64,000 bases of DNA, taken from NCBI GenBank assembly GCA_964485575.1, contig CAZAJO010000005.1, forward strand, positions 1,389 through 65,388, written 5' to 3'. Below are positions 6,445-38,372 of the stretch, piece by piece (position 1 is the stretch's first letter; every line of letters begins with the position of its first letter). The stretch is from an uncultured Gammaproteobacteria bacterium. Lineage in GTDB: Bacteria; Patescibacteriota; Microgenomatia; Levybacterales; GWA1-39-11. The notes below the pieces were generated by a model. The model ran no database searches. It was not told where the DNA came from and worked only from the letters and a program-made list of their open reading frames with translations. Position numbers and translations under genes: made by a program.

Positions 6445-7773
6445 TTAGTAATCCTCTTGGTCTTCTTTTATATCTGCTCCAACTGCAGACAGTCTTTCAA
6501 CAAATTTTTCATATCCACGCTCTATATGCTCTATCCCATAAACAACGCTTTCACCTTTTGCTATAAGAGAAGCAATGACAACCGTTGCTCCTGCTCGAAG
6601 ATCACTGACGGTAAGAACAGCATTGTGAAGGTTTTTTGGACCTGAAATTCTTATGGCCTGCTTGTAGGTAACTTTTGGATCGTAGTTGAAATTGTAAACC
6701 TCTTCAGGATTTGAAACCTCCGGATCAAAAAAGTCAATTTTAGCACCCATTTTTCGAAGTTCTGATACGTATCCAAATCTATTTTCATAAATTGTTTCGT
6801 GAATTGTTGATTCCCCAACGGCTTGGGTAGTTAAAATCGCCCAAGGTCCCTGCCAGTCGGTCTTGAATCCTGGCTCTGGTGCTGTTGTGACATTTGTTGG
6901 AGCGAGTCCATTTTTTGAGAAAAACCTTACTTTTCCATCTATCTCCTCGTATGTACCACCTGCACTTTCTAATTCTTTCAAAAATTCTCCGACATTTGTC
7001 AAATTGGCATTCTCAAGAAAGATATTCCCACCGGTAAGGATGGATAGCACTGCAAATGTTACTAATTCATTACCATCAGACACTATCTCGTACGATGTTC
7101 CGTGCAATTTCTCAACTCCCGTGATCTCTATTCTTCTTCCCTCAAGCCTTTTTATGTTAGCCCCCATATTATTAAGAAGCCCTATAAGGTCATCAATCTC
7201 GTGTTCTTCCGCAGCATTCTCAATAACAGTTGTGCCTTTTGCTAACGTTGCTGCCATGATCAAAGTCTCAGTTCCTGTATGGGTATTTTTTTCAAATCTG
7301 TACGTTGTGCCGGTAAGTCCTTCTGTTGTTGCATGATAATACCCGTCTTCAGATTTGTACTCTATTTTTGCACCCATCTGCTCAAGACCTTCAATATGTC
7401 TTTCGATAGGTCGCGCTCCGAGTCTGCATCCTTCAGGGTTGGGGACTACAGCGTTACCGGTTCTTAGTAACAAAGGGGATATAAACATCGATGAGGTCCT
7501 AACCCTTGCTCCTTCAGCAAGTGAAATAGTGTGGTTTTTTATTTCTTTTACGGTTATCGTAACCTCCCCATCCTGTCTTTCAACAGTTCCTCCAATTGAT
7601 TCTATGACCTCTAAAAGCGCTTCGATATCCGAAATCTCAGGAACATTTTTAAGAGTAACGGGCTCTGAGGTAAGACAGGCTGCAATCACTGCCTTTGTCA
7701 CGACATTCTTAGATCCCGAGATCCGGATCACACCTGAAAGAGCGTTCCCTCCTTTTATAATATATTGCTTCAT
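6445..7773 (-). CDS. murA: UDP-N-acetylglucosamine 1-carboxyvinyltransferase MurA
   Basis: 442 aa with the EPSP-synthase-like fold and N-terminal IKGGNALSGVIRISGSKN signature. Confidence 0.9.
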   Translation of the reverse strand: MKQYIIKGGNALSGVIRISGSKNVVTKAVIAACLTSEPVTLKNVPEISDIEALLEVIESIGGTVERQDGEVTITVKEIKNHTISLAEGARVRTSSMFISPLLLRTGNAVVPNPEGCRLGARPIERHIEGLEQMGAKIEYKSEDGYYHATTEGLTGTTYRFEKNTHTGTETLIMAATLAKGTTVIENAAEEHEIDDLIGLLNNMGANIKRLEGRRIEITGVEKLHGTSYEIVSDGNELVTFAVLSILTGGNIFLENANLTNVGEFLKELESAGGTYEEIDGKVRFFSKNGLAPTNVTTAPEPGFKTDWQGPWAILTTQAVGESTIHETIYENRFGYVSELRKMGAKIDFFDPEVSNPEEVYNFNYDPKVTYKQAIRISGPKNLHNAVLTVSDLRAGATVVIASLIAKGESVVYGIEHIERGYEKFVERLSAVGADIKEDQEDY

Positions 7774-7781
7774 AGTGATTA

Positions 7782-7850
7782 CGTTAACGTGTTCACGGGT
7801 TAACGCGTTCTAACTTTTTAACTCGTTAACTTTTTAGCCCGTAACTAACT
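7782..7850. repeat. GTTAAC-rich intergenic repeat element, copy A (murA/murC spacer)
   Basis: Reads cgttaacgtgttcacgggttaacgcgttctaactttttaactcgttaactttttagcccgtaac. It is about 85 percent identical to the reverse complement of copy C at 47125..47186. Confidence 0.7.
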
Positions 7851-9298
7851 TTATACACATCCCCAGCTCCAATTGTGAGTATTATGTACTCACTAGAGCT
7901 GAAGTTTTGGTCTAAGTATTCTATCACATCATCAAATTTTTCTTTGTATATGACGTCAACATTTTCGGAAAAAGCATCCACTAATTCTTTTTCAGAAATA
8001 GTATCACCCTCCGTATCTCTAGCAGATTTAAATATTGGCAGAAGCACTAACTTCTCAACTCCACTAAATGACATTGCAAAATCAGAAAGTAACGCTTTTG
8101 TCCTTGAGAATGTATGGGGCTGAAAAACACATACCAATTTTTTTTCTGGGTAACTTTTTTTGATGGATGAAATAGTCGTTACTATCTCCAATGGATGATG
8201 ACCATAATCATCTATAAGAAGTGCTCCATGAGGGGTAGTTCCAATTATTTCTGTCCTTCTTTTCGTACCGGTAAAAACCTTTAGCGCTTGACGGATTTTT
8301 TGATATTCATAACCTAATTCTGAAAGCAGAGCAACAACTGACATTGCATTTTTCGCGTTATGTATTCCTGAAATAGATAGCTCAAATAACCCCATCTCAC
8401 GTCCTTTTTTGTGAACTGTAAATTTAGTAGACAGACCAAAAGAAACAATTTTTGATATGACATAGTCATTCTCAACACCCTGACCATAAGAGACTACTGA
8501 AATGTCTTTTGTGATCTTGTCTTTAAAGGAAGACAAATATGTATCGTCACCATTTACAAACAATTTGCCACCACTTCTGATGTTGTCTGCAAGTTCCAAA
8601 AAAGCACCAACAATCTCGTCAGTGTCTTTGAAAAGGTCCGGATGATCAAAATCTATATTATTAAAGATTGCGTATCTTGGGGCAAGATAAAGGAATTTCG
8701 GAACCCGGTCATGCACGGGCTCTGAGGCATATTCATCGGCTTCTGCGATAAAATAGTCCCCACTCCCAAAATGTCCCGGGGCGGCTGAAGGAAACACCTC
8801 ACCGGTACCCACGCTGTATGAAGGGTCCAAATCTAGCGATGCCATGGTCGTTGCAAGAAGGGAAGAGATGGTGGTTTTTCCATGGGACCCTGCAACGGCA
8901 ATCCCCTGTATATTTTTGCCAAAAATATCACCTTTCATAAATATTGATAAAGCTTGCCCTTGAGAAAGAATTGCTATCTTGTTCTCCCGTGCCCACACAA
9001 CTTGTGGATTATCAAACCCCTTGTGTGCCCCTGTTGTCACGACTAGACAAAGAGCTTTTGATGTATCACTAAAAAAACTTTGGATCGAAGAAACGTCAAA
9101 CCCGGAAGACACAGCAATTTCTTTTTTTGCCAACCATACGCCTGTTATAAATTCCTCCTCAACATCAGATCCACTAACTGCAAATCCTGCCTCTTTTGCA
9201 ATAATGGCAAGCGGAGCCATCCCCACACCTTTGACTCCTACAAAGAATATTTTTTTTATTTTCTCAGGAACTCTCAACTCTTGAGTCTTATATTTCAT
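7826..9298 (-). CDS. murC: UDP-N-acetylmuramate--L-alanine ligase MurC
   Basis: N-terminal FVGVKGVGMAPLAIIAKEAGFAVSGSD, matching the MurC (HFIGIGGxGMSxLA) signature; Mur ligase central GSHGKTT P-loop. Confidence 0.8.
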   Translation of the reverse strand: MKYKTQELRVPEKIKKIFFVGVKGVGMAPLAIIAKEAGFAVSGSDVEEEFITGVWLAKKEIAVSSGFDVSSIQSFFSDTSKALCLVVTTGAHKGFDNPQVVWARENKIAILSQGQALSIFMKGDIFGKNIQGIAVAGSHGKTTISSLLATTMASLDLDPSYSVGTGEVFPSAAPGHFGSGDYFIAEADEYASEPVHDRVPKFLYLAPRYAIFNNIDFDHPDLFKDTDEIVGAFLELADNIRSGGKLFVNGDDTYLSSFKDKITKDISVVSYGQGVENDYVISKIVSFGLSTKFTVHKKGREMGLFELSISGIHNAKNAMSVVALLSELGYEYQKIRQALKVFTGTKRRTEIIGTTPHGALLIDDYGHHPLEIVTTISSIKKSYPEKKLVCVFQPHTFSRTKALLSDFAMSFSGVEKLVLLPIFKSARDTEGDTISEKELVDAFSENVDVIYKEKFDDVIEYLDQNFSSSEYIILTIGAGDVYKVSYGLKS

Positions 9299-9308
9299 AA
9301 TTGTATTT

Positions 9309-9342
9309 TGTTAACGGGTTTTAACTTTTTAACTCATTAACC
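9309..9342. repeat. GTTAAC-rich intergenic repeat element, copy B (murC/murE spacer, half-length)
   Basis: Reads gttaacgggttttaactttttaactcattaac, which matches the core of copy A. Confidence 0.6.
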
Positions 9343-10560
9343 TTTTAACATCTCTTTCACCACTTCTTGGTCGCTCCAGGCAACCTCCCCACTACCATAA
9401 TTCATTGATTTTTCGTGCCCCTTACCTGTAATTATCACTGAATCCTTTTGTCCGGCAATTGATATGGCAAATTCGATAGCTTTTTTCCGGTCGTCTATCT
9501 CATATACTGTTTTTCCTTCTAAGTGACCTTCTTCAGTTTCATTCAGAAATTCGTTACTAATGCCATCCTTTATTTGCCTATTTATATCCTCAACTTTTTC
9601 AGACCGGGGATCCTCAGACGTCAAAATAATGATGTCATCATAAAATGAGGCGACTTTGCCCATCTCAGGTCTTTTTCCACTGTCCCGAAGCCCGGCAGCA
9701 CCAAAGACATGGATAAGCTTTCCCTCGGTTCTTTTGCGTATTTCAGGCAAAATATTTTCAAATGAATTTGCGGTATGCGCAAAATCAACCATAATAAGAG
9801 GTCCTTTTGAGCTACCTATGACTTCTTGTCTACCATTTGGAGCTTCAAAGCTTTGGACAGCACTATCAATCGTCAATGGATCTATCCCAAGAGCAATGCA
9901 TGCAGCAGCGGACGCAATAATATTTTCAAGATTAAAGTCTCCGATAAGGTTTGTCTTTATCTGAAAGGGTAGATTGATCATTGAAAGATCATCGTCATTA
10001 TTGCCATGAAGCGAATAACTGATCATCTTTTCTTTTGGAAGTACTTTTTGGACTTCAGAAAACCACTGACCATTACTGTTGACTATCGCAAGATCAGATC
10101 TTTTAAGAAGTCTTAACTTTGTCCGAACATAATTCATGTAGTCTTTGTGATAATCCAAATGCTCGTGAGTAATATTTGTCAGAACCCCTATATTAAATTT
10201 CACTCCCCATACCCTATTTTGATCAAGAGCGTGAGACGTCACTTCAAGTACGATATGGGTGCATCCCATCTTTTTTGCGAGGCGGATATATTTTTGAATA
10301 GCAAATGGAGAAGGGGTCGTTACATGAAACCCGGTGTCGTATGCCTTCCCATCTATTATCGCTCCTATTGTTGAGATAACAGCAGCTTTTTTCCCCGCAG
10401 TACGCAAAATATGATAAATCAGATTTGAAGTAGTCGTCTTTCCATCTGTTCCCGTGACACCTATTACCGTAAGGCCCTTTGAGGGAAACCTGTTATAAAT
10501 GGTTGCTGTCAAAGCTTGTGCCAGGTGTCCCGTATTTTTTATTTTTCTGATGGTGGACAT
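9337..10560 (-). CDS. murE: UDP-N-acetylmuramoyl-tripeptide ligase MurE-like Mur ligase
   Basis: VIGVTGTDGKTTT P-loop, a VDFAHT motif and Mur ligase domain order. Assignment as MurE rather than MurF rests on the position and the DxAH motif, so it is inference. Confidence 0.7.
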   Translation of the reverse strand: MSTIRKIKNTGHLAQALTATIYNRFPSKGLTVIGVTGTDGKTTTSNLIYHILRTAGKKAAVISTIGAIIDGKAYDTGFHVTTPSPFAIQKYIRLAKKMGCTHIVLEVTSHALDQNRVWGVKFNIGVLTNITHEHLDYHKDYMNYVRTKLRLLKRSDLAIVNSNGQWFSEVQKVLPKEKMISYSLHGNNDDDLSMINLPFQIKTNLIGDFNLENIIASAAACIALGIDPLTIDSAVQSFEAPNGRQEVIGSSKGPLIMVDFAHTANSFENILPEIRKRTEGKLIHVFGAAGLRDSGKRPEMGKVASFYDDIIILTSEDPRSEKVEDINRQIKDGISNEFLNETEEGHLEGKTVYEIDDRKKAIEFAISIAGQKDSVIITGKGHEKSMNYGSGEVAWSDQEVVKEMLKG

Positions 10561-10579
10561 GTTTTAATTATACTAGTTC

Positions 10580-12265
10580 TCACTTGGATGGCTCAATGTT
10601 GTAGTACTGGATGATATCCCGGGCTATGGCAAAGAATGTTGGCGCTGCGGTCTCTGCACCATAAATTGAGGATTGAGGTCTGTTGACTATGACAAGCATT
10701 GTGATCTGGGGGTCCTCAGCAGGAAAAAAACCTACAAAGGAAGCGTTTGTGTTGGTGGGATCGTAATGTCCGGCAACCGGGATCTGAGCAGTACCAGTTT
10801 TTCCTGCGATATGATAATTTGGGATTTTCGCAAATTTTGCTTCTCCATTTTCAACAGCATTTACCATCATCCAGGTCATCACTTTTGCGGTGGCACTTGA
10901 AATCACTTGTTTTTCAACCTGTGGCTCAACATTTATGGTCTTGCCATCTGGAGTTAAGATCTTCTCAACAACCATTGGTTTCATCAATTTTCCTCCGTTT
11001 GCGATGGCGTTGACAGAAGCAAGAAGCTGAATTGGGGTTATTGAAATTCCTTGGCCAAAACTTGCAGTCATAAGATCAATATCTTTCCATTTCCTTGGAG
11101 AACGAAGCTCTTCAGTTACTTCTCCTTGGATGTCGATTCCTGTCAGTGTACCTATTCCAAAATTCTTGAGGTAGGTAAGGAACCGGTCTATCCCTAATTT
11201 TTTGGCTACAAATACCATGCCCGTGTTGTCCGAGTGCTGGATCACCTGGGTCATATTTATATTTGGTATATATTCATCATTCCATGTCTTTATCGAAAAT
11301 CCGTCTTGCTCTATAGGACCTGCACAGTCGTCACATCTGGTGTCCGGGGTAACCAATCCACTATCTATTCCTGCTGCCATGACAAGCACTTTAAAGGTAG
11401 AACCGGGCTCGTAAAGGTTTGAGACGATGGGGCTTGTGTAGTATTTACCGTCGTATTCCCAATATTTTTGTGGATCAAATTTTGGATAAGATGAAGCCGC
11501 CAAAACTTTTCCGGTCTTTGTCTGCATGATAATAACTGTCGCCCCCTCTGCCCCATATCTCTCAAGACCCTTTTTGAGCTCAGTATCTGCCATGTATTGG
11601 ATGGAGCGGTCGATGCTTGTGACGAGGTTCCTGCCATCTATCTTTTTGTCCTCACGAATTTCTGTAAGTATAGGATTGCCCACAGCATCTTTTATAAGAT
11701 ACGTACTTCCTGGTCTTCCGCGAAGCTGTCTGTCATAAAATCCCTCTATCCCAAAATATCCTTGATCCTCACCATCCTGATTTTTGCCTACAAACCCTAC
11801 TAAGTGTGCGGCAAGTGATGCCTCGGGATAATTTCTTTCTGTCTGCTGCTCGAACCCTAACGCATTAAGCTTTAGTGCCTCAATCTGCTTCCTTTGGTCG
11901 TATGAAAGTCTGCTTTGAAGACTCACCCAATATAAGTTTTCTGAAAGTCTGGCGGATATTGATGCTGCGTCTACAGCAAGAACAGGAGATAGTAATTTTG
12001 AATATGAATCCGTTGAATCCACTTTTTTTGGATTGGCGTAGAGAAGATAGCTTATCTTGTTTGTGGCCAGTGGAAAGTTGTCATGGAACAAAATGTCTCC
12101 TCTTTTTGCGGTTGTTACAAGTGACAAAGAACTTTGATCGCGTCCAGCAAGGCGCAATCCCTCTGCTTTTACCACCTGCCAGTAAAACAATTTAAATAAT
12201 ATGGCGATGTAAAAAAGGGCAAATGCTAGAAAGATTGTGATGAGACGTTTTTGGTCTCTTTTCAT
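10580..12265 (-). CDS. ftsI: Penicillin-binding protein transpeptidase FtsI (class B PBP)
   Basis: N-terminal TM helix plus the transpeptidase motifs STFK, SDN and KTG. Confidence 0.85.
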   Translation of the reverse strand: MKRDQKRLITIFLAFALFYIAILFKLFYWQVVKAEGLRLAGRDQSSLSLVTTAKRGDILFHDNFPLATNKISYLLYANPKKVDSTDSYSKLLSPVLAVDAASISARLSENLYWVSLQSRLSYDQRKQIEALKLNALGFEQQTERNYPEASLAAHLVGFVGKNQDGEDQGYFGIEGFYDRQLRGRPGSTYLIKDAVGNPILTEIREDKKIDGRNLVTSIDRSIQYMADTELKKGLERYGAEGATVIIMQTKTGKVLAASSYPKFDPQKYWEYDGKYYTSPIVSNLYEPGSTFKVLVMAAGIDSGLVTPDTRCDDCAGPIEQDGFSIKTWNDEYIPNINMTQVIQHSDNTGMVFVAKKLGIDRFLTYLKNFGIGTLTGIDIQGEVTEELRSPRKWKDIDLMTASFGQGISITPIQLLASVNAIANGGKLMKPMVVEKILTPDGKTINVEPQVEKQVISSATAKVMTWMMVNAVENGEAKFAKIPNYHIAGKTGTAQIPVAGHYDPTNTNASFVGFFPAEDPQITMLVIVNRPQSSIYGAETAAPTFFAIARDIIQYYNIEPSK

Positions 12266-21131: not shown

Positions 21132-22106
21132 TTAACTTACTACATCAATAAAATGTATTTGTTTATTTTTTCCCCAGTCCATAATTTTTACATACCTACC
21201 ATTGTGTTTTGTTGGGTGATTTAATTTACAACCCTCACATTCATATTTTTCAACTTTATCTGGGGTTTCCCAAAAAAGAGTTTTTTCACCTATTGTAACC
21301 TTTGTTTCGTGATGACAGCTCATGGGTATGACATATTTAAGGCCGTCCATCTGAAATATATTCCAGCTTATAATTTCAGCAAATTCTTCCAGCACATAAA
21401 GAGGTGGTCGTCTATTAAATTTAGCTTTATAGTGATCAATGAGTGTATAAAGTAGATTTTCGCGAGCAATTAAAATATTGTCACCTTGCCATTCGTAACC
21501 ATAGGAACTCTGATATGCAACTTTTGCCCACTTAATCCATTCTTTTGGCTTTTTACAGTATTTAGAAACGTAATGAAGCTTCTTGTCGAGAAAACCAACC
21601 CGGTTCTCAATCTTTATAACTGCTCCATGAGCAATTGGATTGTACCGACTTACTATAAAAGGCGCCTCACCACAAGCAATTTCAAGTTTTATTTCAGCAA
21701 CATAACTTTGCCAATTGGTTTCAGTTACTGAATTCTCATCAACCAATTTATTCATTTGGTCAATAATATGAAGTGGAGTGAACACTTCTCCCTTTTCTCT
21801 TGTACGAAAGCGCTGCTCTTCGCGGCTTTTAACAGCACGAGGCTGAATCAGCTTGCCATTAAGTCCAGTCACCAATTCAGGTTTTATCTGATTTTTTTTT
21901 GAAAACTCTTTACCGTATTTTTCGTAAGAATCAGTTGCCCAGATAATGTTCTTTTTTGTGGTCCTATCAATAAGAAGAATATCTAGAAGCTTGCCTTTCC
22001 GTCGAAGCGTGTTTTCAAGGATGTCAGCATTTTTTTCCGGTGCCATGTTATTCCACGGCTTTGACATGTGTTTCGATGAATTGAATTTCTTTCTCATCAA
22101 GTCCAT
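21132..22106 (-). CDS. Methyltransferase-like protein (gamma-class N6-MTase motifs X and I only, no NPPY) with C-terminal Cys/His Zn-ribbon-like cluster
   Basis: Contains GEVFTPLHIIDQM (motif X) and LEIACGEAPFIV (motif I), then a C-terminal CHH...CEGC cluster. It lacks (D/N)PP(Y/F/W). The true start is probably the ATG at 22046 (MAPEK), 1 nt after the stop of the upstream giant gene. Confidence 0.5.
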   Translation of the reverse strand: MDLMRKKFNSSKHMSKPWNNMAPEKNADILENTLRRKGKLLDILLIDRTTKKNIIWATDSYEKYGKEFSKKNQIKPELVTGLNGKLIQPRAVKSREEQRFRTREKGEVFTPLHIIDQMNKLVDENSVTETNWQSYVAEIKLEIACGEAPFIVSRYNPIAHGAVIKIENRVGFLDKKLHYVSKYCKKPKEWIKWAKVAYQSSYGYEWQGDNILIARENLLYTLIDHYKAKFNRRPPLYVLEEFAEIISWNIFQMDGLKYVIPMSCHHETKVTIGEKTLFWETPDKVEKYECEGCKLNHPTKHNGRYVKIMDWGKNKQIHFIDVVS

Positions 22107-25100
22107 ACTTTTTATAAAGCTGTCTGTCTATATCTGCGATGGATTTGGTCCAATCGATATCTGAATCAGATGTAAAGTCTTGGATAGGTATATATATCCA
22201 TTTTGATGGTGGGTTATCTTGCGTAATCTTTAGCACACCTAACAAGCACCTTAATAATTTTGTTTTGATATATTTTGCAGCATTAATTGCCTCAATTTCT
22301 TTATCAAAAGCCCCAATACTTATGAATGTCGGTGTAGCTGAATCTGATGGTCCACCAACTACCGGTTTACTCAAAATTTCACCAAAGGAACCACTACCGT
22401 TTGCCTTGGGAATAAAAATCTTCCATTTGCCTAGATTATTTTTTTGAGGATAGCGCGGAACCATAAATTTTTTCTCTATCCATCGCCATACTCTTTCTCC
22501 CCGATATAAGCCTAAAATTCTATAGTAATCACTTGAGTTGCTAGGATTTTGCTTCTTGAAAACATCAGTTAAGGATTCAAAAGTTGATGACTTCAATTCG
22601 TATTCTTCATTTGGTCCAAGCTCTGTGACCTCCGGGTGCTTTGCTTGAATATTCAAAAGTCGATCTTTTTTGGAATTTGGATATTCTTTTAGAAATTCTT
22701 CGTTAAATTTCAGGTCTGATCTTCCCCCAAGCATGATTGATGAAAGATTATTTTCACTGCCAGGATTGACCTTTGAAATTATTATTCTTAAATTTGCGTC
22801 TGGAATAAATTTCTTGATAGCACCAAAATTCTTGTTTTCGTCATAATAAATAATAGCTACTCCTCCTTTTATATCAGTGTTCGGAAACACTTCTTTTGAA
22901 TTTGGGTTGTAATACTGAACTTTTAAATGAGCATTATTCAGCATCTTTAAATTCCATAGCTCAGGCGTTAATCCTGCATTAAAAAGGAAGCGAGCAGGAG
23001 AAATTATGCAGTATTTTTTACTAATTCTCTCCGCTAAATCATAAAAATATTGGTAAATAGGTTCTTGTCGATTGTATCCATCGGAAGATACCTGATATGG
23101 GGGGTTCCCAACAACAACGTCAAATTTCATATTTTTGTCTTCATTAAATTTAACTAATAATTCTTCTTCTGTATTCGTTATTCCTTGCCTTAATTTCTTT
23201 ACTAGATCTTCTATATATACAACATTCATCCTCGCACCACCATATCCAGCTAGCGTACGACGGGTTATCATTTGAGCCATTGGACTTTTACAGAGCACGA
23301 AAATATTGTCTGATAGAACTTTATTCCAAAGTTGTCTAGATATTTTGTCCTCAGGATTTTTGGCCTTTCTTAACTGCCTTGAATATATGTTATAGGTCGC
23401 AAGTAAGGGATAGAGCCCTGATTTTGAATTTATCTCAAGTATTTTAGTGTCGTCTTGTGACCAAATCTCTGTAGCCTCACCTTGAATTTTCCATTCTGGC
23501 TTTCCTGATTGATCAATAATTCCACCACGGAAGTCATGACCACCCAAAGTCATAACCATTTGCATATTTACAACATTCCATGGAGTGAGTACTGTCTCCT
23601 TATCTGGATTCTTGAAAGTTGCGAATATCTCAGCTATCGCCTGTATTCGTTCAGTTGGCAAAAGATCATCGCAGTCATAAGTTTTTGCTCGAATGCTGCG
23701 GGTAACACCACGAAATACTTCTTCATCATAATATTTAATGAAGCTTCGGAACAAATCTTTACTTAGTCCTGCCGGCATAAATTCTTTCCATGATTCTTCA
23801 TCAACAAGATCAATAAAATCTTGCAGGGTAATATCTTTATGAAGAGAAACATTAGCTCCATAGACCATCATTGGCATACGTATACTAACGGCTCGCAAGA
23901 TACTAATGGCACTCCTTTTTTGCTCTCGTGCTTCCTTGAGTTTTCTTAGCGCTTCTTTCTCTTCTTCTGATAGTTCTCTTTTTTGTTTCTTTCGTTCTTC
24001 TTCCTCGGCTTTTTGTATTTCAAGATCTGTCATTCCAAGACTATTAACCTCAATCTCGTTAATACGTTCATTTGTACTTGAACCAATAATGGCTTTCAAT
24101 TTATTAAAATTATTGATCGCTAATTCATCCAATTTAAGTAGCTCATCATTGTACAGTTTGGGGTCATCAAACCCATTGCGACTTACACGATCAATAATCG
24201 CCTTCTTAAGCTGATTAAGCATCGAGCCTACATCGTAAGGCTTCATAGATCCTCCTTCTGCTGCAAGAATAGGACAGAAATTAAGAAATTGGCTCATTGC
24301 GTCTTTTTGCTCAGGTGTATTTGTCTTGCCTGATTTATGATTTAGCTCTATAGCTTCGGCAATTAGCTTAAGAGTGCGGTCAGGAGCAAAATCGAACACA
24401 TACCCTTGGGTCTTAAGCTTTCCGTCAATTTTTGCTGGTGTTTGACATCGAAATGCAGTCTGTAAGTAAGCAGTAGCAGAGCTTGTATCTGACATCATAA
24501 AGACTGCTGTCCATTCCGGAATCGATGCACCTGTGGTCAGACGCTGACCCGTAAGTGTAATTGTGTACTCATTGGCCTTTATAGCATTTGTCACTCGCTC
24601 TTTTGCATCCTTATCTTCCTCGTCAACATGATTATTTCCTGAAATGTTTACTATTCCGAACTGACCAAAAATTGGGTGTTCTTTGAGCAACTTCTCCATA
24701 GCTTCAATAACTTTAACTCGATTAGGCAATAGCCACAAAGAGTGCTTATTGTAGTTACGGTATTCTTCTGTTGCATATGGAAACTTTGTTTGGAGTGTAT
24801 TGTCCACTAGTAAATCCAAGAATTTATTAACCATCTCTTCATGAACAAACTCTGCAACATCATTACCTTCATCGTCTTTATGTACTCGAAAAAATTCATG
24901 GAATTTGAAAGCACCATCTAGTGCATCTTTAAATTCAGTACCAAGACTTCCGATGTGACTTGCATATTTATCAATATCATAAGTAAACATGCTAAGAGCC
25001 GGTAATTCAGCATAGGGATTTGGCTTACCAGGATGATGCACGTCCCAGAAGAACTTCTCTTCCTGCTCCATCACATAATCCCAAGTATAAATATCTCTTT

Positions 25101-26073
25101 CTTCGTGCTTATGTAAAATATTAAATGGTGTACCTGAAAGTTGAAGAGTGAAGTTTCTTGGAATTTTTTCAAAAGTAGCTTCTCCTAGGATGCTTTGAGT
25201 ACCTTCATGAGCCTCATCTACGATAAGCATATCCCAAGTTGCATCGAAGACTTCATCGTTTTTATCAAATCCTCGCGCACCTGAATGAGCTGCTTCATCT
25301 ACAACAACTCTTTTGGAAAGACGTAAATCTTGTAATGAAGCAAAATAAATAAAAGGCTTATCACCTTTAACAAGTGTGCTAATATTTTCACCCTTAGTTC
25401 TGGATGAATATTCGTAATTTGTGCCTTCAAATACTTTATTAAAGTCGTCATACCAGTCTACACTTACGCTCGGACGATGCGTAACGATGAGCACCTTTTT
25501 CATCTCATTATCTTTGGCTACCTGCATAGCAGCTGATGTTTTACCAAAGCGCATTTTGGCATTCCAGAGAAAATGTTTACGATTTTGCTTGATTGCCTTG
25601 GTGGTTTTTTCTATAGCATCAAGTTGATTAGGTCTGAAGACAAATTCTCCATGCTTTTCATTTATTCTTTCTTCGGTATTAAGAGAAATCCGGCCTTCTC
25701 TAGCAGCGTTTATTGCATTTTTTGCTACATCAAGACTGATTTCAAACCATTCAGAATGATAATTTTTTGTATTTTCTGATTTTCGCTGGAAACCTGAACG
25801 CATCAATATTCGATGCACGGGTTTATCAACATCTTCAGGCTTATTGCCTGGAGTGGTTAAGATTTCAGCCAATAGTAATTTGTATGCCACGTCAGCTGTC
25901 TTTGTCTGTTGCTCGATGCGTTTTCTTGCAGCTTTTTCTATGGCTTCTTTTGAATTTATTGTTGTCGTTGCAGCACCAATCTTGAGCCGTCCCTTGTGAC
26001 TTCCGTCCCCAATGGTATAAACGTAAATGACTCCGTAGGAGAAAGTCTCATGAATTACATGTTGATTATCCAT
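22048..26073 (-). CDS. T5orf172 (GIY-YIG-like) - SF2 helicase - N6-adenine DNA methyltransferase - C-terminal target-recognition-like fusion protein; Type ISP-like single-chain restriction-modification candidate
   Basis: The N-terminus has YVYTIGD...GRLKIGAATT...HSEWFEI, a T5orf172/MUG113 signature. The helicase part has motif I RFGKTSAA, motif II LIVDEAH and motif III LSGTP. The MTase part has motif X VLTPWNVVNMQMV, motif I ILEINSKSGLY and motif IV VVVGNPPYQ. A roughly 340-aa C-terminal region would act as the target recognition domain. Confidence 0.7.
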   Translation of the reverse strand: MDNQHVIHETFSYGVIYVYTIGDGSHKGRLKIGAATTTINSKEAIEKAARKRIEQQTKTADVAYKLLLAEILTTPGNKPEDVDKPVHRILMRSGFQRKSENTKNYHSEWFEISLDVAKNAINAAREGRISLNTEERINEKHGEFVFRPNQLDAIEKTTKAIKQNRKHFLWNAKMRFGKTSAAMQVAKDNEMKKVLIVTHRPSVSVDWYDDFNKVFEGTNYEYSSRTKGENISTLVKGDKPFIYFASLQDLRLSKRVVVDEAAHSGARGFDKNDEVFDATWDMLIVDEAHEGTQSILGEATFEKIPRNFTLQLSGTPFNILHKHEERDIYTWDYVMEQEEKFFWDVHHPGKPNPYAELPALSMFTYDIDKYASHIGSLGTEFKDALDGAFKFHEFFRVHKDDEGNDVAEFVHEEMVNKFLDLLVDNTLQTKFPYATEEYRNYNKHSLWLLPNRVKVIEAMEKLLKEHPIFGQFGIVNISGNNHVDEEDKDAKERVTNAIKANEYTITLTGQRLTTGASIPEWTAVFMMSDTSSATAYLQTAFRCQTPAKIDGKLKTQGYVFDFAPDRTLKLIAEAIELNHKSGKTNTPEQKDAMSQFLNFCPILAAEGGSMKPYDVGSMLNQLKKAIIDRVSRNGFDDPKLYNDELLKLDELAINNFNKLKAIIGSSTNERINEIEVNSLGMTDLEIQKAEEEERKKQKRELSEEEKEALRKLKEAREQKRSAISILRAVSIRMPMMVYGANVSLHKDITLQDFIDLVDEESWKEFMPAGLSKDLFRSFIKYYDEEVFRGVTRSIRAKTYDCDDLLPTERIQAIAEIFATFKNPDKETVLTPWNVVNMQMVMTLGGHDFRGGIIDQSGKPEWKIQGEATEIWSQDDTKILEINSKSGLYPLLATYNIYSRQLRKAKNPEDKISRQLWNKVLSDNIFVLCKSPMAQMITRRTLAGYGGARMNVVYIEDLVKKLRQGITNTEEELLVKFNEDKNMKFDVVVGNPPYQVSSDGYNRQEPIYQYFYDLAERISKKYCIISPARFLFNAGLTPELWNLKMLNNAHLKVQYYNPNSKEVFPNTDIKGGVAIIYYDENKNFGAIKKFIPDANLRIIISKVNPGSENNLSSIMLGGRSDLKFNEEFLKEYPNSKKDRLLNIQAKHPEVTELGPNEEYELKSSTFESLTDVFKKQNPSNSSDYYRILGLYRGERVWRWIEKKFMVPRYPQKNNLGKWKIFIPKANGSGSFGEILSKPVVGGPSDSATPTFISIGAFDKEIEAINAAKYIKTKLLRCLLGVLKITQDNPPSKWIYIPIQDFTSDSDIDWTKSIADIDRQLYKKYGLDEKEIQFIETHVKAVE

Positions 26074-36309: not shown

Positions 36310-36615
36310 TCAGCTTTTCTTAAGCGGAGTATAGACTTTCTTTTTAGTGGTTGTTGTAGACTTCTTTTTAACTGGCATTGACGATTTTGGGGTCTTTTTC
36401 TCTTTACTTTGAGAGCCTGCAAATTCTTCAACTTTCTTTTTAACAGTCATTCCAATCTTTACTGCCTCATCTGAGACTTCATCGATCGTTTTTTTGATTT
36501 TTTCTTGATTCTTTTTATTGGATAGGTATACTGCAGCAGCACCTAATGCTGCGCCAGCAATTGCAGATCCTACAGCAACTGCTTCGCCAACTGTTTGTTT
36601 TTTCTTTTTTCCCAT
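36310..36615 (-). CDS. Lys-rich hypothetical protein with one TM helix
   Basis: The annotated ORF 36310..36687 overlaps metK by 65 nt. The internal start MGKKKKQ at 36615 removes the overlap. Confidence 0.4.
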   Translation of the reverse strand: MGKKKKQTVGEAVAVGSAIAGAALGAAAVYLSNKKNQEKIKKTIDEVSDEAVKIGMTVKKKVEEFAGSQSKEKKTPKSSMPVKKKSTTTTKKKVYTPLKKS

Positions 36616-36622
36616 AACGTCA

Positions 36623-37750
36623 TTATACACCACTCTTTCCAGTTGAGATCTTTTCCCAAGGAAAACCTGTGCGACCGAAGTGACCATAGGCAGCAGTTGA
36701 GCTGTAAATCGGTCGTGCCAACTTTAACGTTTCGATAATAGACCTGACTGACGTATCAATGAGCTTATCCTTAAAATCAAATAGCGCCTTCTCACTCACA
36801 GTAGATGTACCGAAGGTCTCAATTGTCTGCATTAGAGGTCTTGGCTGCCCTATGACATATGCAAGACCAACTTCACATTTTGTAGCAAGACCAGATGCTA
36901 CAATATTTTTTGCGATATAACGGGCAGCATATGCTCCTGATCTGTCGACTTTACTAGGATCTTTTCCAGAGAAAGCGCCACCACCAACCCGCGCGTATCC
37001 TCCATATGTGTCAACGACAATCTTTCTACCCGTAAGTCCAGCATCTGACTCCGGACCTGGGATATGCCACAATCCTGTACCGTTAATAGTTATGTCTGAG
37101 TCTTTCGGAAGCTCTAGTTTGTATTTTCTAAGAACGGGTCTGAAGACATTTTTGATGATCTCATCCCTAACTTGATCAGCTTCCGTCTTTTCATCATGGG
37201 CAACTGCTGCAACGAGTTTTTCTATCCCAATCGGGATACCTTTTTCGTATTTGACTGTCACTTGAGCTTTCCCATCTGGGCGTAGCCATTTCAATATTTT
37301 CTTCTCCCTCACCTCATCTATGCGCTCAACTAAAGCATGTGCCATTCTTATGGGTAAGGGCATCAACTCAGGTGTTTCATTACAGGCATACCCAAACATC
37401 ATGCCTTGATCTCCTGCTCCATCAAGGTCAACACCCATTGCAATTTCTGGAGATTGAGCGTGTATACTGTTGGTGAAAGAAGATTTCTGGCTGAATCCCC
37501 ATGCGGGAACAGTATACCCAAGTTCCTTTACTTTATTTCTGGCTATTTTTTCAAAATTGATTTTTGACTTAGTTCTTATCTCACCAAAAAGACAAATTTG
37601 ATTTGCACCGGCAACAGTCTCTATGCCACATCTGGAATTTGGGTCAGAGGCAAGAGCTGCATCCACAATTGCGTCACTTATCTGATCGCAAATCTTGTCG
37701 GGATGTCCTGCACAAACTGATTCTGAAGTAAAAAGGTAATTCTTTGACAT
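36623..37750 (-). CDS. metK: S-adenosylmethionine synthetase MetK
   Basis: GHPDKICDQISDAIVDA signature. The true start is probably the ATG at 37750 (MSKNYLFTSESV), not the upstream TTG at 37768. Confidence 0.9.
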   Translation of the reverse strand: MSKNYLFTSESVCAGHPDKICDQISDAIVDAALASDPNSRCGIETVAGANQICLFGEIRTKSKINFEKIARNKVKELGYTVPAWGFSQKSSFTNSIHAQSPEIAMGVDLDGAGDQGMMFGYACNETPELMPLPIRMAHALVERIDEVREKKILKWLRPDGKAQVTVKYEKGIPIGIEKLVAAVAHDEKTEADQVRDEIIKNVFRPVLRKYKLELPKDSDITINGTGLWHIPGPESDAGLTGRKIVVDTYGGYARVGGGAFSGKDPSKVDRSGAYAARYIAKNIVASGLATKCEVGLAYVIGQPRPLMQTIETFGTSTVSEKALFDFKDKLIDTSVRSIIETLKLARPIYSSTAAYGHFGRTGFPWEKISTGKSGV

Positions 37751-37757
37751 AATTTTT

Positions 37758-37846
37758 TCCTTGGGCAAGGACGCATCGCTTTGGCAAGCTTGGCACCGAT
37801 AAATTTACGGTTGCCGTTCGTAGCTATACGAAACTCTTGATGCAGA
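37758..37846 (-). promoter_or_regulatory. Candidate SAM-I-family (S-box-like) riboswitch with SD-sequestering hairpin in the metK leader
   Basis: The minus-strand leader reads UCUGCAUCAAGAG...CGGCAACC...GGUGCCAA...AAAGCGAUGCG. It shares the exact octamers AUCAAGAG, CGGCAACC and GGUGCCAA, in the same order, with the canonical yitJ/metF S-box, as I recall it. P1 pairs GCAUC with GAUGC, and UCCUU/AAGGA pairing sequesters the SD. Confidence 0.4.
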
Positions 37847-37883
37847 TATTATTTAAACAAATTGGGAAAAGAAAAACAAGAGA

Positions 37884-38372
37884 TTATTTACTCTTGTTTA
37901 AGACGTTGTAGATGGATTTGGCACCTTTTGCAGTAGGAGAGGCAATAACAGCAGGAATATCATCAACTATACTAACTCCTACTCCTATCAGACTGCTCTC
38001 TACATATCTATTTGCACCACTCGTAAGACCAGCAGCAACAGCTCCACCTATCGCCGCCCCCACAACTTTCCCCCCGATCCCTTTACCCGATTCATTTGCT
38101 ATGCCAACACCTGCTATAACTCCACCCGCCGCCGCCGGGAGAAGATCACTCACCTCACTAGCAACAAGTGGCAACGAAACGAGATGATTAAGAGCCGTCA
38201 AGGCAAGAGAAACACCAACCGCTGAGGTTTGGTGAGGATACTTTTTTAAAAAACCCACTGACTTATCGTAGATACTTGCAAAAAAACGACTTTGACTTTC
38301 AGGGTTGTTCTGCAATATCTCACCGGGGATATCTAGAGGTAAAATTCCCTGCTCTGCTACTCCTTCTTCCAT
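37884..38372 (-). CDS. Gly/Ala-rich hypothetical membrane protein
   Basis: 162-aa ORF with hydrophobic Gly-rich stretches. Confidence 0.35.
   Translation of the reverse strand: MEEGVAEQGILPLDIPGEILQNNPESQSRFFASIYDKSVGFLKKYPHQTSAVGVSLALTALNHLVSLPLVASEVSDLLPAAAGGVIAGVGIANESGKGIGGKVVGAAIGGAVAAGLTSGANRYVESSLIGVGVSIVDDIPAVIASPTAKGAKSIYNVLNKSK

Follow-up and report, generated by a model that had tools for sequence, protein, structure and literature searches.

A probable SAM-I/IV riboswitch with a Shine-Dalgarno-like arm in its 3′ hairpin in the metK leader of a Levybacteria-like bacterium

The DNA considered here is a 64-kb stretch of contig CAZAJO010000005.1 (hereafter the window), from a Levybacteria-like member of the candidate phyla radiation (CPR). 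Its metK gene, encoding S-adenosylmethionine (SAM) synthetase on the minus strand, is preceded by a leader that folds as an aptamer of the SAM-I/IV family, and the fold is conserved at orthologous loci. A Shine-Dalgarno (SD)-like arm lies in the aptamer's own 3′ hairpin close to the start codon, and the leader holds neither a terminator nor an alternative pairing for that arm. Analysis of these features suggests that the leader is, with good probability, a SAM-I/IV riboswitch at the very 5′ end of the mRNA that most likely works as a translational OFF switch.

A cmscan search of both strands of the 64 kb with 4227 Rfam families gave a single match above the gathering score, to SAM-I/IV (RF01725) on the minus strand. 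It scores 47.5 bits against a gathering score of 41.1 (E = 1.2e-4), covers model positions 1-99 of 99 and was kept as the best overlapping match in clan CL00012, one overlapping clan match of lower score being dropped. When aligned to RF01725, the leader matches every conserved position of the model. The original prediction had proposed a SAM-clan aptamer with a short P2 helix, of SAM-IV or SAM-I/IV type, at 37751-37850 upstream of metK. The minus-strand sequence it quoted is exact, RF01725 upholds the class, and the span is essentially right: the element begins with the first base of P1 at 37843 and stops with the 3′ hairpin at 37758, within an Rfam match of 37743-37848. The element is in the sense orientation and ends 7 nt upstream of the metK AUG. 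The gene is also as predicted, since the 375-aa product starting at ATG 37750 contains the N-terminal, central and C-terminal S-adenosylmethionine synthetase domains of Pfam.

Orthologous metK loci from metagenomes and metagenome-assembled genomes (MAGs), designated by L-numbers, were gathered by MetK similarity alone, and the sample is therefore unbiased with respect to the leader RNA. In L083, L086, L162, L164, L165, L166, L168 and L169, RF01725 exceeds the gathering score at the same position; in L002, L170 and L171 it stays below. L001, L173 and L174 have the same architecture by eye and by segmentation at invariant motifs. The element is not universal among CPR metK leaders: no Rfam match at E <= 1 was obtained for those of L004 and L022 (Magasanikiibacteriota) and L055 (Gracilibacteria), nor for L001 and L084, of which by eye the former is of SAM-I/IV type and the latter SAM-I-like. 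The window and thirteen of these loci supply 14 distinct leaders for covariation analysis. As plain MAFFT misaligns the variable helices, basal helix pairs were counted in a fixed register extracted from conserved anchors; 97% of cells are paired and 16/24 pairs are changed on both sides, counts that lean towards structure because the registers of the junction and 3′ hairpins were set by folding and inspection. The covariation score is 0.648 compared with 0.204 +/- 0.023 for shuffles (0/500 as high), and displacing the partners by 1-3 columns brings it down to <=0.14. RNAalifold applied to the unfitted MAFFT alignment recovers only P1, P2 and P3, with 8/18 pairs changed on both sides. P1, P2, P3, the junction hairpin and the 3′ hairpin all covary strongly. 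Both checks proposed with the original prediction, a cmscan search and a covariation analysis of orthologous metK leaders, have thus turned out in its favour, with RF01725 above the gathering score in the window and eight orthologous loci, and compensatory changes in P1 and the other helices.

Read on the minus strand, the 5′ part of the leader is GCAUC AAGAG, UUUCGUAUAGCUACGAA, CGGCAACC GUAAAUUUAUC GGUGCC, and the 3′ part is AA GCUUGCCAAAGC, GAUGC G, UCCUU GCCC AAGGA, AAAAAUU, AUG (Table 1). Its unconstrained minimum free energy (MFE) fold (-27.7 kcal/mol, z = -2.13) contains all five helices, including the junction hairpin. The pairing of GCAUC with GAUGC in P1, already recognized in the original prediction, is part of this fold and keeps 5/5 pairs in all 14 leaders, the first pair being G-C in seven, A-U in six and G-U in one. 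The two central A-U/U-A pairs are invariant. In the SAM-I crystal structure that Montange and Batey are said to have described in 2006, the carbonyls of two such P1 pairs reportedly face the sulfonium. P2 has no internal loop or kink-turn (K-turn) in the MFE fold, and 5/6 of its basal pairs are changed on both sides across the orthologues. The core of P3, also seen in the MFE fold, is invariant in the 14 sequences and fits the upper-case positions of the model. Between P3 and the 3′ strand of P1 stands a hairpin of 4 bp and a tetraloop that recurs in all 14 leaders with differing helix sequences; 3/3 counted pairs are changed on both sides, and the summed MFE is -30.3 kcal/mol as against -0.7 +/- 1.3 kcal/mol in shuffles (0/2000 as good). 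This junction hairpin has no counterpart in the RF01725 consensus. Its interpretation as a novel hybrid feature of SAM-I and SAM-I/IV was rejected, an optional hairpin being present there in many members of the original Weinberg alignment, and it therefore does not discriminate between the two classes. In the 3′ hairpin, 4/4 basal pairs are changed on both sides.

Table 1. Coordinates of the metK leader, its parts and the adjoining features, given as positions in the window
Feature	Position	Strand	Basis and remarks
RF01725 match	37743..37848	-	cmscan
P1, 5′ strand GCAUC	37839..37843	-	pairs with 37773-37777
J1/2 core AAGAG	37834..37838	-	conserved model positions; near-invariant in orthologues
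P2	37816..37834	-	6-bp stem, 4-nt loop, closing G-C; MFE fold
P3	37792..37815	-	conserved asymmetric internal loop GGCAACC...GGUGCC; 9-nt loop L3 UAAAUUUAU
Junction hairpin GCUU-GCCA-AAGC	37778..37789	-	between P3 and P1 3′ strand; position of P4 in SAM-I
P1, 3′ strand GAUGC	37773..37777	-	segmentation, pair count, RNAalifold
Aptamer 3′ hairpin UCCUU-GCCC-AAGGA	37758..37771	-	aligned to the 3′ hairpin of the model; 1 nt after P1
3′ hairpin, 5′ arm (anti-SD)	37767-37771	-	
3′ hairpin, 3′ arm (SD-like AAGGA)	37758-37762	-	
A-rich spacer AAAAAUU	37751..37757	-	3′ hairpin to AUG; possible PK-2 3′ strand
metK coding sequence, 375 aa	36623..37750	-	Pfam PF00438, PF02772, PF02773, E 1e-34 to 1e-58
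Candidate extended -10 promoter TGTTTAAAT	37851..37859	-	analogy with TGnTAnAAT boxes of the window
Intrinsic terminator of upstream gene	37874..37899	-	terminator scan; 9-bp stem, then T-run

SAM-I/IV riboswitches were described in 2010 as a 'SAM-I/SAM-IV variant' from 'several phyla, marine' (Weinberg et al., 2010; PMC2864571). The class is defined by a core of SAM-I/SAM-IV type, a P2 without internal loop and the probable absence of a pseudoknot at the P2 tip (PMC2864571 and supplement). The window leader agrees in each respect: it has the core, a straight P2, no conserved P2-tip pseudoknot (PK-1) and a hairpin 3′ of P1. A candidate PK-1 between AGCU in the P2 loop and AGCU in the junction was discarded on losing its complementarity in the close relatives L162 (loop GUAAA) and L164 (loop UGGU). 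Further points of likeness to RF01725 are the optional hairpin between P3 and P1, the position of the other hairpin directly 3′ of P1 and ahead of an A-rich tail, the association with a gene of SAM/sulfur metabolism, and probable OFF control of translation, with the signal presumably carried by the 3′ subdomain. The leader differs from the members of the original alignment in placing the SD-like element in the arm of the 3′ hairpin, whereas theirs lies in the tail or in the strand of the second pseudoknot (PK-2). It also differs in its PK-2 complementarity (L3 with the tail), at best five A-U pairs and not above chance, and in its CPR host.

The same binding core and four-way junction topology occur in SAM-I (S-box; RF00162), which regulates metK in many bacteria. 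Unlike the window leader, SAM-I has a K-turn in P2, a pseudoknot between the P2 loop and J3-4 and a longer P4; no hairpin follows its P1, and its platform is usually of the terminator/antiterminator kind. SAM-IV (RF00634), to our knowledge essentially restricted to Actinomycetales, likewise has a hairpin 3′ of P1 in a PK-2 subdomain and controls translation. However, its P2 contains an internal loop with PK-1 and it has no junction helix, as seen in the cryo-electron microscopy structure (PMC6890682), whereas the P2 of the window is straight and the junction hairpin is present.

Could the leader nevertheless be a classical SAM-I aptamer with a truncated P2? The four-way junction with its small hairpin at the P4 position fits this, as do the sister CPR metK leaders L003 and L082, which carry classical SAM-I. 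However, the best clan model is RF01725, P2 has neither internal loop nor K-turn, the AGCU/AGCU complementarity is not maintained among relatives, the junction hairpin is an optional part of described SAM-I/IV as well, and the conserved, covarying hairpin 1 nt after P1 is absent from SAM-I; we therefore hold a SAM-I assignment to be very improbable. It is just as hard to credit that the SAM-clan fold senses another ligand, e.g., S-adenosylhomocysteine or another adenosyl compound. Nothing specific favours this beyond the fact that ligand identity cannot be read with certainty from sequence, and it runs against the presence of all conserved SAM-I/IV core positions, the two P1 pairs that never vary, and a regulated gene whose product makes SAM. 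A coincidental likeness within A/U-rich intergenic sequence that does not function as RNA would fit the modest margin over the gathering score (6.4 bits); it is refuted by matches to the same family in the leaders of many orthologues and by the strong compensatory covariation of five helices, and the probability left to it is negligible.

The leaders of related lineages fall into two types that differ in what follows the aptamer. In the extended type (L174, L168, L171, L083, L086, L001 and L002), an A-rich tail comes after the 3′ hairpin and leads to a separate hairpin with a U-run, which in L083, L086 and L171 directly abuts the metK AUG. In L083 and L086, the 3′ arm of this second hairpin is AGAGG-like. 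In 5/6 extended relatives, the 5′ arm of the terminator/sequestrator finds its complement in a junction segment (...GAGAGGA...; -5.8 to -9.8 kcal/mol); judged by complementarity, this is a classical antiterminator/anti-sequestrator arrangement, and the element of these relatives is clearly a switch. The compact type comprises the window, L162/163, L164/165, L169, L173, L166/167 and L170, with MetK proteins at least 85% identical, and has no second hairpin and no U-run. Instead, the 3′ arm of the aptamer hairpin (AAGGA, AAGGG or AGGGA) ends 4-7 nt before the AUG in 7/7 leaders. The inner motif CUGAGC...CGAAGG is common to the 3′ hairpins of both types (L170 compared with L174), so the compact hairpin is homologous to the aptamer element and is not a relic terminator. 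The junction hairpin of L170 retains GAGAGG, which suggests that the compact form was derived by loss of the terminator. The P2 of one compact leader (L173, ~1860-1920; MetK 90% identical) holds a structured insertion of ~45 nt, and the P2 periphery thus varies freely.

The position of the aptamer at the 5′ end of the mRNA is predicted from a candidate promoter. A generic sigma-70 scan called no promoter directly upstream of P1, but the motif TGTTTAAAT, an extended -10 candidate, is conserved upstream of P1 in relatives. Elsewhere in the window a TAnA[AC]T box, often with a preceding TGn, ends exactly 6 nt before the ATG in 12/57 long open reading frames (ORFs), where 0.14 would be expected (e.g., at ATGs 27405, 29034, 32479, 33668 and 16003). 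From this frequency, most mRNAs here are probably leaderless. With the same 6-nt spacing as at the leaderless genes, metK transcription is predicted to start at about 37844/37843, 0-1 nt before P1. The metK transcription unit is bounded on its 5′ side by the intrinsic terminator of the upstream gene. Within such a genome, metK would be one of few genes needing internal initiation, which fits a putative SD-like element in its leader.

If the compact leaders have no terminator, how might the aptamer act on expression? In the proposed mechanism, abundant SAM would bind the core and lock P1. The 3′ subdomain of this SAM-bound state would fold with its hairpin stacked beside P1, perhaps together with a weak pseudoknot between L3 and the spacer. 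The SD-like AAGGA and the spacer would then be held in structure, giving less 30S binding and less SAM synthetase. At low SAM, P1 and the weak hairpin of 5 bp (-2.9 kcal/mol in isolation) would breathe and allow the ribosome to load. Sensor and expression platform would thus be the same piece of RNA. An SD placed inside the ligand-bound fold, with no separate platform or alternative helix, is known from SAM-II, SAM-III/SMK box, SAM-V and preQ1-II riboswitches, which are functional analogues only, their folds and binding pockets being unrelated to those of the window leader.

The original prediction had envisaged an SD-sequestering platform in which UCCUU pairs with AAGGA. The hairpin itself is real and part of the MFE fold, but it is the 3′ hairpin of the aptamer and not a separate platform. 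Likewise, the anti-SD/SD pairing is correct as a structure but not as a two-state secondary-structure switch, since there is no alternative pairing. When all of the aptamer was searched, no partner for the anti-SD arm was found to beat shuffles in the compact clade. A SAM-free alternative fold that frees the SD was accordingly discarded, as neither folding with P1 forbidden nor the partner search gave anything above shuffles. Since the hairpin is predicted with or without P1 and has no anti-sequestrator, SD sequestration would have to come from ligand-promoted tertiary stabilization. Crystal structures of env87, a SAM-I/IV riboswitch, were reportedly obtained by Trausch and colleagues in 2014 (4L81/4OQU). 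According to the summary of Trausch et al. (2014) given in PMC8525861, SAM binding to env87 promotes long-range interactions of the 3′ (PK-2) subdomain, and these are required for regulation. A SAM-promoted stabilization of the 3′ subdomain as in env87 is likely the best-supported mechanism for the window leader.

Several observations weigh against a translational OFF switch of this kind. The proposed switch depends wholly on tertiary effects, which lie beyond secondary-structure modelling, and a partition-function model gives the SD a pairing probability of 0.92 whether P1 is permitted or forbidden. The closest relatives have far more stable 3′ hairpins (-7.7 to -10.3 kcal/mol), which could amount to (partly) constitutive occlusion. 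Regulation of env87 is carried by PK-2. The window's candidate for this pseudoknot, a pairing of AAUUU in L3 with AAAUU (the last five bases before the AUG), has five A-U pairs (-0.7 kcal/mol) and 56% of shuffled tails are as good, which makes it indistinguishable from chance. Across ten lineages, cognate tails are likewise not distinguished from non-cognate tails (permutation, p = 0.19). SD-like motifs stand upstream of 7/57 ORFs in the window, the background rate (12%), and with most mRNAs probably leaderless, an SD role for AAGGA is a deduction. The transcription start before P1 is also a prediction from its candidate promoter. A PK-2 that is clearly non-random was seen in L086 alone (8 bp; matched by 0.1% of shuffles), and a lone G-C pair is present in the same register in the PK-2 of L086 and L174. 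Among close relatives, L3 and the spacer are nearly invariant; there the P2 loop and the hairpin interior differ freely. A weak PK-2 between L3 and the spacer is thus a possibility in the window leader.

These points are accommodated if the leader is a genuine SAM-I/IV sensor whose UCCUU/AAGGA hairpin is constitutive and transmits no signal, or if regulation has been largely lost in the compact clade. Control might then follow other routes, such as mRNA stability (with the 5′ end buried in SAM-bound P1), Rho, or the L3-spacer pseudoknot alone. Modelling predicts the hairpin just as well without P1 as with it, and the compact clade, unlike its relatives, has no anti-sequestrator. The terminator-bearing L001 and L174 already have a GG-rich 3′ arm with no AUG nearby, so the hairpin sequence is in itself no evidence of SD function, which the background frequency of SD-like motifs in this genome does not favour either. 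As such motifs are rare, the assignment of AAGGA as an SD draws on comparison with other metK leaders, and here the evidence points the other way: the distance from the 3′ arm to the AUG is fixed at 4-7 nt in seven diverged leaders, and in related lineages the metK leaders consistently have, within a regulated hairpin, an AGGA/GAGG-type element 7-8 nt ahead of the AUG. That the aptamer is strongly conserved throughout also argues for a retained output, and protection of the 5′ end by SAM would create an ON switch, the wrong sign for metK. A constitutive hairpin or lost regulation, with any of these other routes, is in our estimation rather unlikely, and a translational OFF switch acting through the 3′ hairpin is preferred.

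Classical SAM-I elements with a K-turn occur in metK leaders of other CPR lineages (Saccharibacteria/Saccharimonadales), namely L003 (1306-1416; 49.8 bits with the SAM-I model) and L082 (1-119; 45.6 bits). L172 (~1780-2000) and L084 (~1240-1340) are SAM-I-like by eye with long insertions and are missed by Rfam at E <= 1. On a rough neighbour-joining tree of MetK, built without support values, SAM-I and SAM-I/IV leaders appear to be interleaved. L002 (~126-297; 32.9 bits with RF01725) unites a 3′ hairpin of SAM-I/IV type and a terminator with a P2 whose internal loop is similar to the K-turn region of SAM-I in L003 (GAGAUCU.GCU), and may represent an intermediate architecture. The interleaving and the mixed features of L002 could indicate that, in the course of evolution, the two classes have been converted directly into one another at a single locus. 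In the compact clade, the riboswitch may have dispensed with any expression platform, leaving the decision to ligand-dependent tertiary stabilization only; terminator and antiterminator may have been lost, PK-2 have become degenerate and the 3′ hairpin have become the ribosome-binding site, in a genome that may be mostly leaderless and SD-less. Such a reduction together with interconversion of SAM-I and SAM-I/IV is a tentative proposal, and we consider it doubtful that both hold.

A module of the form CCUGAGC(N3-5)G(Y)CGAAGG recurs in the interior of the 3′ hairpin in L164, L169, L170, L173, L174 and L086. It is built of three Watson-Crick pairs, apparent tandem G.A/A.G pairs, one G-C pair and a loop of five nucleotides. 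The same module is inserted once in P3 of L002, and has been lost from the window leader (UCCUU-GCCC-AAGGA).

In the window, 48/57 ORFs are on the minus strand. The TAA stop codon of the upstream gene (162 aa) lies inside the loop of its terminator and the candidate metK promoter follows within about 15 nt, so that the intergenic space is extremely compact. A small ORF of about 101 aa (36310-36615, minus strand), whose weak YtxH-like Pfam match falls short of the cut-off, begins 8 nt past the metK stop codon. Its position is conserved in L081, L162 and L164, and it is therefore probably co-transcribed with metK under the same riboswitch. Further away, a 1341-aa ORF (22048-26073, minus strand) with ResIII helicase/restriction and Eco57I-type methylase domains is probably a fused type IIG/type III-like restriction-modification enzyme. 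Cell-wall genes at 6445-12265 (minus strand) encode a MurA-type EPSP-synthase fold, a Mur ligase and a penicillin-binding protein transpeptidase, consistent with a peptidoglycan-making CPR bacterium.

An identical MetK is found on an NCBI contig and on Logan contigs. The host lineage was assigned from named relatives at 74-82% identity and from the nearest species-representative genomes. Among the latter, the closest MetK sequences are those of Patescibacteria and Saccharibacteria MAGs (59-62% identity). A large protein collection contains many MetK relatives at 78-94%, the named ones being mostly Levyibacteriota, Microgenomates and Saccharimonadales; two carry non-CPR names (Verrucomicrobiae and Sulfotelmatobacter). 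The neighbouring glycyl-tRNA synthetase has relatives with CPR names only, including Candidatus Levybacteria (82% and 75%) and 'Patescibacteria group' (74-76%). Together, the two proteins place the window in a Levybacteria-like member of the Microgenomates (CPR), in line with the CPR origin that the original prediction had supposed.

The window leader adds a member to an RNA class that has already been described, and knowledge of SAM-I/IV itself is unchanged; the element would be picked up whenever these MAGs are annotated with Rfam. No report of a natural SAM riboswitch in CPR/Patescibacteria was found in the literature searched, which is weak evidence of absence. Of modest interest are the fusion of the aptamer 3′ hairpin with a putative ribosome-binding site, the antiterminator logic of the relatives having been lost, and the seemingly interleaved occurrence of SAM-I and SAM-I/IV at orthologous metK loci of CPR bacteria. 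CPR/Patescibacteria have tiny genomes with few recognizable regulators, and their control of expression is almost uncharted. A conserved and covarying SAM riboswitch at metK would mean that metabolite sensing has been retained, and is under selection, in CPR bacteria of Microgenomates type. A recent review considers riboswitches promising for inducible expression in Patescibacteria, as future genetic tools (PMC11665869), and the metK leader would be a natural ligand-responsive element for these organisms. The series of leaders, from SAM-I through SAM-I/IV with a terminator to compact SAM-I/IV with a putative SD inside the aptamer, offers a natural experiment on the gain and loss of riboswitch platforms and periphery.

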